In this document: positions 32,918 to 33,226 of the stretch, piece by piece | How positions within the stretch are numbered: the first letter of the stretch is position 1 | How the letters are laid out: each line of letters starts with the position of its first letter | From: Xylographa opegraphella | Lineage: Eukaryota | Assembly: GCA_022813865.1 (NCBI GenBank) | Contig: JALDZX010000036.1 | Location: 62,001-126,000 of the forward strand | Reading direction: 5' to 3' | Length of the DNA: 64,000 bases | Program-made: the position numbers and the translations under genes | The notes under the pieces: model-generated | Told to the model about the DNA's origin: nothing | What the model saw: the letters and a program-made list of their open reading frames with translations, nothing else | Database searches by the model: none

Positions 32918-33226
32918 ATGCATTACTCTACTTTCGTTCTCGCCGCACTTGCAGCGATCGCAACCGCCATGCCCTTCGAACCAGTACCGCGAAGCCCAAG
33001 CAGTGAGATTCAACAGTGACCCCCGTCTTTCGCGAGCCATGTTGACTCTCTCTCAGTGAAGCCGGCGATGCAATCCAAGGATGTGTTCGACAGTGTGGTT
33101 GCCCGCGGTATAGGCGCGGATGAGGACGTGATGTTCCCGAGCGCCAGCAGGGATGAGGACATCATGTATCCAGATGCATCTCGCGACGGAGACATCACAT
33201 ATCCTGATGCATACGATGACGAATAG
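32918..33226 (+). CDS. Putative fungal RiPP precursor peptide (84 aa, signal peptide plus 3 tandem acidic repeats)
   Basis: Exon 1 32918-33002, intron 33003-33056 (GTGAGA...TTGAC...CAG), exon 2 33057-33226: MHYSTFVLAALAAIATAMPFEPVPRSPSMKPAMQSKDVFDSVVARGIGADEDVMFPSASRDEDIMYPDASRDGDITYPDAYDDE*. Lies next to two DUF3328 genes. Confidence 0.8.
33110..33223 (+). repeat. Degenerate 33-bp coding tandem repeat (3 copies plus a partial 4th)
   Basis: Equivalent Asp codons at 33119, 33152, 33185 and 33218 (33-nt period): GATGAGGACGTGATGTTCCCG / GATGAGGACATCATGTATCCA / GACGGAGACATCACATATCCT. Confidence 0.85.

Follow-up and report, generated by a model that had tools for sequence, protein, structure and literature searches.

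Xylographa opegraphella, a lichen-forming ascomycete of the Lecanoromycetes, is the source of the 64,000-nucleotide (nt) stretch of DNA considered here (the window), which carries a small intron-split gene for an acidic, disordered protein of 84 amino acids (aa) with three tandem 11-aa units. This gene probably, though by no means certainly, encodes the precursor of a dikaritin-like peptide made on ribosomes and altered after translation (a RiPP) that is modified by the neighbouring UstYa (DUF3328) proteins and whose repeats are delimited by a single Arg and a Pro rather than by the dibasic pairs KR or RR. A UstYa-dependent RiPP precursor is favoured because three features occur together, namely a signal-like start, short repeats containing Tyr or Phe, and an adjoining pair of UstYa genes, both of them intact and encoding membrane-anchored proteins.

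The structure of the gene had been proposed in a sequence-only reading of the window, and the coordinates and sequence given there for an 84-aa product split by a 54-nt intron proved to be exact. The spliced coding sequence is 255 nt long, whilst retention of the intron leads, as had been stated, to an in-frame stop after 33 aa; an intron of 54 nt is normal at this locus, since those annotated in the neighbouring UstYa-1 are 60 and 58 nt in length. The same reading described the gene as hidden and absent from the track of open reading frames (ORFs), which is not truly the case, as the translated exon 2, used as a protein query, retrieved a 100% identical hypothetical protein of X. opegraphella at NCBI, MMC26_005169 (P0003, 67 aa), in which the exon junction is identical (..SPS-M-KPA..) and the intron was thus predicted independently. 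The NCBI protein is truncated at its N-terminus, starting at the second ATG (32969) and missing the first 17 codons, hence its lack of a signal peptide. Read from the first ATG, the product begins with an n-region of M-H-Y-S, to which are added an h-region of 13 uncharged residues and, ahead of the proposed cut, A-T-A. A crude check of this signal-like start, using as comparison set the ORFs of at least 28 aa read from their first Met in all six frames of the window, found an equally hydrophobic uncharged 12-mer within the first 22 residues of 5 of 484 ORFs. We infer that translation begins at the first ATG and that the precursor is secreted. Start-codon choices such as that of 32969 over 32918 would hide secreted mini-proteins from any mining based on SignalP.

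The three units have the motif D[EG]D[VI][MT][FY]P[SD], with Phe as the aromatic residue in unit 1 and Tyr in units 2 and 3, and the strict motif has three matches in the six-frame translation of the 64 kb, all of them within the precursor. A self-comparison scored with BLOSUM62 gave a value at period 11 of 66 for residues 18 - 84 and 84 for residues 41 - 84, the other periods from 3 to 19 being negative throughout, and the observed score was not reached at any period in 5000 composition-preserving shuffles, so that the claimed 11-aa repeat is well founded. Units 2 and 3 share 9 of their 11 residues and yet only 21 of 33 bases, with different codons at five of the nine common residues. The synonymous differences reported earlier (CCG, CCA and CCT for Pro; AGC-AGG vs TCT-CGC for Ser-Arg) are correct, and the constraint at the protein level that had been read from them is upheld. 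Tandem Repeats Finder detected no DNA repeat at the precursor, indicating that the repeat exists at the level of the protein only. With their codons diverged and no DNA repeat left to find, the copies are old and are held together at the protein level. The six basic residues of the 84 aa (R25, K30, K36, R45, R60 and R71) are never adjacent; there is, as had been noted, no KR, RR or KK, and the units are joined by A-S-R linkers in place of flanking dibasic KEX2 sites.

Relatives of the precursor are few. A HMMER search of 1.84 billion representative proteins (E up to 0.001) gave four matches, these being the query, two long proteins and a 46-aa ORF (P0006, E 7.9e-5), and a profile made from the precursor and P0006 added a 45-aa ORF (P0007), with 3 of 39 candidates passing at E up to 0.1. 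P0006 and P0007 come from ENA assemblies and look like exon-2 fragments that were called without the upstream exon. Pairwise BLASTP comparisons among the three members gave E values of 7e-14, 5e-8 and 2e-11. Both homologues end in ..[VA]-D-R-D-G-D-V-T-Y-P-D-x-Y.., which corresponds in Xylographa to unit 3 together with the tail, and it is in R-D-G-D-[VI]-T-Y-P-D-x-Y that conservation across the three is strongest, with D-x-D-[VI]-x-[YF]-P-D also well kept; the family motif may be written x-[DS]-R-D-[GE]-D-[VI]-[TM]-[YF]-P-D. The DED-xx[YF]P type of pattern, on whose conservation in homologues the sequence-only reading had staked its proposal, is therefore retained in both. A single Arg is present in all five inter-unit linkers (D-R in the homologues), and a Pro followed by D, S or N ends every one of the eight units. 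The number of units varies (3, 3 and 2), which supports the reading of the protein as a multi-core precursor. Tyr and Phe are each found in four of the eight units, the first unit always having Phe and the last always Tyr, so that the units may not form three equivalent cores. Just ahead of its first unit each homologue carries a single dibasic pair (KR, RR); the Xylographa protein has S-K at that place. The two long proteins, P0004 (1187 aa) and P0005 (766 aa), were discarded as they match through unrelated 10 - 11-aa Pro/Ser/Tyr repeats of their own; that they reached E 7e-14 and 7e-10 from repeat composition alone is a caution for the use of HMMER with short repeat queries. Scans of JGI metagenomes produced 30 pattern matches with the precursor alignment and 523 with an exon of UstYa-2, none of which was confirmed in either case, and the ESM Atlas gave no usable match.

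The likeness to UstA and PhomA drawn in the sequence-only reading is strengthened by two genes that it did not report. Both UstYa genes are complete, lie within 2.3 kb upstream of the precursor and encode a double HxxHC motif. They were recognised in Pfam scans of 212 stop-to-stop ORF pieces: 91 pieces between 18.2 and 50.4 kb, each 90 aa or longer, in the first scan; 84 pieces from 29.2 - 42.6 kb in the second, comprising 71 of 50 - 89 aa and 13 ORFs of at least 90 aa from the first scan rerun at a looser cut-off; and, in the third, which took in the outer parts of the window at a minimum length of 90 aa, 37 of the 95 ORFs that remained there. UstYa (PF11807) matched three of the 91 pieces and one of the 84 and no others among the 212, the four pieces representing two genes with E values from 1.9e-19 to 2e-5; those of UstYa-1 scored 70.8 and 25.0 bits (the Pfam gathering cut-off is 25) and those of UstYa-2 45.2 and 51.4 bits. 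UstYa-2 is a distant paralogue, 26 - 36% identical to UstYa-1 over the aligned parts. Its second HxxHC (31719-31860, - strand) crosses a short intron, and scans at the level of ORFs or of single exons see 'DHC' there and could wrongly score the motif as absent. A complex prediction with the lumenal part of UstYa-1 and the precursor gave a score of 0.02, which amounts to no verdict and is evidence neither way. The positions of these and other features are collected in Table 1.

Table 1. Features of the precursor locus and its surroundings; positions are those of the window.
Feature	Position	Strand	Remarks
UstYa-1 (NCBI MMC26_005167, 231 aa, 3 exons)	30634-31444	+	N-terminal membrane anchor; HQLHC, HVRHC
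UstYa-2 (4-exon model of this analysis)	31497-32430	-	membrane anchor; HELHC; EHS|DHC split by intron
Upstream region common to UstYa-2 and precursor	32431-32917	divergent	487 bp between start codons
Precursor exon 1	32918-33002	+	28 codons + 1 base; ATG 32918; signal-like segment, start of leader
Signal-like segment MHYSTFVLAALAAIATA, 17 aa	32918-32968	+	part of precursor exon 1
Precursor intron	33003-33056	+	54 nt; donor GTGAGA, branch-like TTGAC, acceptor ...TCTCAG
Precursor exon 2	33057-33226	+	leader remainder, three 11-aa units, AYDDE tail; stop 33224-33226
Unit 1, IGA-DEDVMFPS	33110-33142	+	motif start residue 50
Unit 2, ASR-DEDIMYPD	33143-33175	+	motif start residue 61
Unit 3, ASR-DGDITYPD	33176-33208	+	motif start residue 72; best conserved among homologues
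Tail AYDDE (partial fourth unit)	33209-33223	+	directly after unit 3
Fung_rhodopsin (PF20684) multi-exon membrane protein	33960-35343 (bounds approximate)	+	Pfam
Class I S-adenosylmethionine methyltransferase ORF (Methyltransf_23/12/31/25)	36421-37389	+	Pfam; 3 kb downstream of precursor
Secreted S28 serine peptidase, signal-like N-terminus, GGSYAG	40363-41988	-	PF05577, 155.6 bits; 7 kb downstream of precursor

It can be envisaged that translation from the ATG at 32918 would yield a protein whose 17-residue signal peptide carries an acidic propeptide of 67 residues into the endoplasmic reticulum, where the two membrane-anchored UstYa proteins, their double-HxxHC domains facing the lumen, would carry out an oxidative modification of the recurring [VI]-x-[YF]-P. 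The likeliest reaction would be a side-chain cross-link from the aromatic residue to the branched Val or Ile two positions earlier, and the D-x-D ahead of [VI]-x-[YF]-P may serve as a recognition element; we know of no precedent for a link that spans just two positions with the branched residue before the aromatic one. The units would then be freed without the use of dibasic sites, through a cut at the invariant single Arg of the linker, a cut after the invariant Pro, or both, these points being proposed because they are the two invariant border residues. For the cut at Arg, kexin itself is a possible agent, whilst the secreted S28 peptidase is a candidate for processing after Pro, and the methyltransferase, on the strength of its proximity, is a possible tailoring enzyme for the product. 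The earlier view of the processing as necessarily non-canonical is plausible but overstated, given that kexin may cut at the single Arg found in all five linkers and that the homologues each have one dibasic site.

A number of UstYa-dependent peptides have been characterised, and the accounts cited here of ustiloxin, phomopsin, asperipin-2a, victorin and epichloecyclin describe in each case a signal-bearing, multi-unit precursor encoded beside UstYa/DUF3328 genes, the products of which are needed for side-chain macrocyclisation at an aromatic residue (PMC7329392, PMC9233826, PMC10540207, PMC9769878). A kingdom-wide survey that covered 7878 KEX2-processed repeat proteins (KEPs) found DUF3328 genes near 22% of the KEPs, with a frequency that peaked next to the precursor gene and a mean of 1.7 per precursor, and of the DUF3328-linked repeats 65.6% contained Tyr, which was enriched (PMC7329392). 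The dikaritin precursors (UstA, PhomA, AprA of asperipin-2a and VicA of victorin) share with the Xylographa protein short tandem aromatic units and adjoining UstYa genes and have a secretory signal where it has a putative one, and the ustiloxin and phomopsin clusters, like the present locus, have a methyltransferase nearby (PMC7329392, PMC9233826, PMC12048977). The definition of dikaritin clusters by Ding et al., as quoted in a later source, included an accessory tyrosinase and a methyltransferase and was subsequently relaxed (PMC12048977). The cores of the dikaritins lie between KR, RR or KK sites cut by KEX2 (PMC9769878), whereas there are no such sites in the 84 residues of the Xylographa precursor and its linkers have a single Arg; in this connection, peptidomics has revealed products cut after a single Arg, tentatively ascribed to KEX2 (PMC9769878). 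The order of residues in the core is also different, as ustiloxin and phomopsin have Tyr-x-Ile, with Tyr joined to the Ile two positions after it (PMC7329392), while the present family has [VI]-x-[YF] followed by an invariant Pro.

The epichloecyclin system of GigA, GigB, GigC and KexB offers a further comparison, in that GigA is a small secreted multi-unit precursor cyclised by GigB, a DUF3328 protein (PMC10540207). For its cores (INFKIPYT etc.) a bond has been proposed between the Tyr and the Ile or Pro at the N-terminus, which precedes it by several residues (PMC9233826, PMC10540207), and this arrangement of Ile/Pro...Pro-Tyr, with an internal Tyr and an N-terminal partner, has some likeness to the Xylographa units (PMC10540207). 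A methyltransferase gene belongs to the epichloecyclin cluster, as one also lies near the present precursor, and how the follower peptide of epichloecyclin is processed has no explanation (PMC10540207). GigA differs in having 27-aa units bounded by LxKR, a dedicated kexin (KexB) and a methyltransferase of the SET-domain type (PMC10540207), and HMMER and profile searches revealed no sequence similarity between GigA and the precursor family. KEPs in general have short repeated peptides behind a signal peptide, as the Xylographa protein would with its signal-like start, but the latter lacks the dibasic sites that define them, with the consequence that standard KEP mining would miss it, as had been foreseen. 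None of the strings TYPD, MYPD and TFPD occurs in three supplementary files of the KEP survey, which may be incomplete (PMC7329392). Thus the precursor resembles those of the dikaritins and epichloecyclin but does not have their dibasic-separated cores, and it is not filed here as a KEP. Cores bordered by an invariant Pro and released by a proline-specific serine peptidase, as is proposed here, are found in the MSDIN family (amatoxins and cycloamanides) and the borosins (PMC9233826); those routes have no UstYa enzyme, and in the present case the candidate is a secreted S28 peptidase whose role can only be suggested. The literature searched, outside of which most subscription journals fell, contained neither a UstYa-linked precursor without dibasic sites nor an S28 peptidase in such a cluster, an absence that carries little weight.

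An important consideration in judging the UstYa-dependent reading is that several observations weigh against it. The second ATG (32969) has the better Kozak-like context (a purine at -3) and was chosen by the NCBI model, and a product started there would be without a signal peptide. All three species have Phe and not Tyr in unit 1, and Phe would first have to be hydroxylated before it could give a phenol ether. The family found comprises just three members, with the homologues being ORF fragments and the co-occurrence with UstYa seen in one genome, and the protein collection holds no close orthologue of UstYa-1, the best match other than itself being 40 - 45% identical. Both the S28 peptidase and the methyltransferase are encoded several genes away from the precursor, and they belong to common families. 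Unlike the dikaritins the locus has no tyrosinase among the 212 ORF pieces scanned, and the three units of the precursor are far below the 16 of UstA (PMC10540207). Furthermore, UstYa proteins also act in non-ribosomal pathways (PMC12048977), so that their adjacency is not in itself proof.

This last point also favours the principal alternative, a rather unlikely one that nevertheless deserves serious consideration, in which the gene encodes an intact small secreted acidic repeat protein (for example a cell-wall, surface or metal-/calcium-binding protein, or a symbiosis effector) and the UstYa pair, acting on some other substrate, is there by coincidence. The net charge of about -10 (residues 18 - 84 include 16 acidic and 6 basic ones) and the absence of dibasic sites between units would suit such a protein, as would the position-specific conservation, with Phe in the first unit and Tyr plus x-Y in the last, which fits a function of the whole protein, and we take the D-x-D-G-D string to resemble acidic cation-binding loops. 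However, no meaningful Pfam match was obtained for the three family proteins at E up to 10, calcium-binding families included; units 2 and 3 are closer within than across species and the copy number is variable, as is typical of multi-core precursors; and the invariant Arg and Pro at the unit borders look like processing marks. The immediate, divergent adjacency to UstYa also matches what the KEP survey reports for genuine precursors (PMC7329392). The near-invariance of the last unit and its x-Y, set against the divergence of the units upstream, could alternatively mean that the C-terminal R-D-G-D-[VI]-T-Y-P-D-x-Y and the tail are the only core and that the upstream units are degenerate leader or recognition copies. 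A second Tyr follows the last unit only, P0007 has one full D-G-D unit, and the lichen RiPP survey itself raises single-core precursors as an explanation of missing repeats (PMC12048977). This reading is nonetheless improbable, since unit 2 is identical to unit 3 at 9 - 10 of 11 residues in X. opegraphella and P0006 and the synonymous drift between units 2 and 3 of X. opegraphella argues that unit 2 is under selection; in any event a single core is a sub-case of the UstYa-dependent precursor and not a contradiction of it. It is very improbable indeed that the gene is not functional at all and represents a chance ORF or prediction artefact in the upstream region common to its neighbours. Its tiny size and the ambiguity of the two start codons would be in keeping with this, but there are protein-level homologues in other assemblies, the repeat exceeds chance and its units have diverged at synonymous sites, the NCBI model independently has the identical intron, and the opposite-strand ORF at 33010-33366 has no match to a Pfam family.

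It may tentatively be suggested, at a lower level of likelihood than the UstYa-dependent precursor itself, that the Xylographa protein represents a class of UstYa-dependent precursors without Kex2 dibasic sites, in which Arg and Pro form the unit borders, the Pro possibly being cut by an S28 peptidase, and in which [VI]-x-[YF]-P has a topology unlike that of ustiloxin and phomopsin. UstYa/DUF3328 clusters are widespread in fungi, and if such a class exists many orphan clusters would have precursors of this overlooked sort, while the orientation of [VI]-x-[YF]-P would imply a cross-link topology different from that of ustiloxin and phomopsin. A 2025 survey of 111 genomes of lichen fungi, which according to its supplement included X. 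opegraphella, reported 987 RiPP clusters (PMC12048977). Precursors were sought in two clans of the Parmeliaceae only, by a pipeline in which SignalP was combined with a requirement for Kex2 sites and with a repeat finder, with no repeated precursors resulting, and Xylographa does not appear in its main text (PMC12048977). The gene described here shows how a precursor of this kind could escape a SignalP/Kex2 pipeline, having an annotated start without a signal, no dibasic site, a length of 84 aa and an intron. Should the proposed class be real, mis-set starts, tiny intron-split genes and absent KR sites would jointly explain the precursors missed in surveys of lichen UstYa clusters. Confirmation would broaden the rules by which fungal genomes are mined for RiPPs and would indicate that processing in the secretory pathway can follow a non-dibasic route. 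Heterologous expression of a three-gene cassette of ~2.6 kb would then make a new peptide scaffold accessible from a hard-to-culture lichen fungus.

The wider surroundings of the locus are mixed in character. To the left of the UstYa cassette lie the housekeeping genes for fibrillarin and ribosomal protein L17/L22, from which it is concluded that the cluster ends on that side. On the right, several ORFs without a family match separate the methyltransferase, which has no relative in the PDB, from the S28 peptidase. The closest PDB relative of the latter is the prolyl endoprotease of Aspergillus niger (E 9.4e-26), the other matches being lysosomal Pro-X carboxypeptidase and dipeptidyl peptidase 2, so that each of these enzymes is proline-specific. 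Long ORFs without a Pfam family at the thresholds used occur at 1730-5248 (1173 aa), 8023-10185 (721 aa), 43812-45980 (723 aa) and 53464-55986 (841 aa); another (23998-26337, 780 aa, no Pfam match) is closely followed by an assembly gap in the form of a run of 20 N at 26399-26418. An alpha/beta-hydrolase ORF at 5949-6752 (- strand), with weak matches to FrsA-like, S15 and S9 (prolyl oligopeptidase) families, is 26 kb from the precursor and is probably unrelated to it. Carbohydrate-related genes flank the locus at 14723-17329, 18556-20406 and 47400-48953, the types represented being rhamnogalacturonase/pectate-lyase-like, alpha-amylase and a Cas1p-type acyltransferase with ten transmembrane segments. 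A second Fung_rhodopsin (PF20684) gene is present at 61636-62566 (- strand), ~27 kb from the copy beside the precursor.

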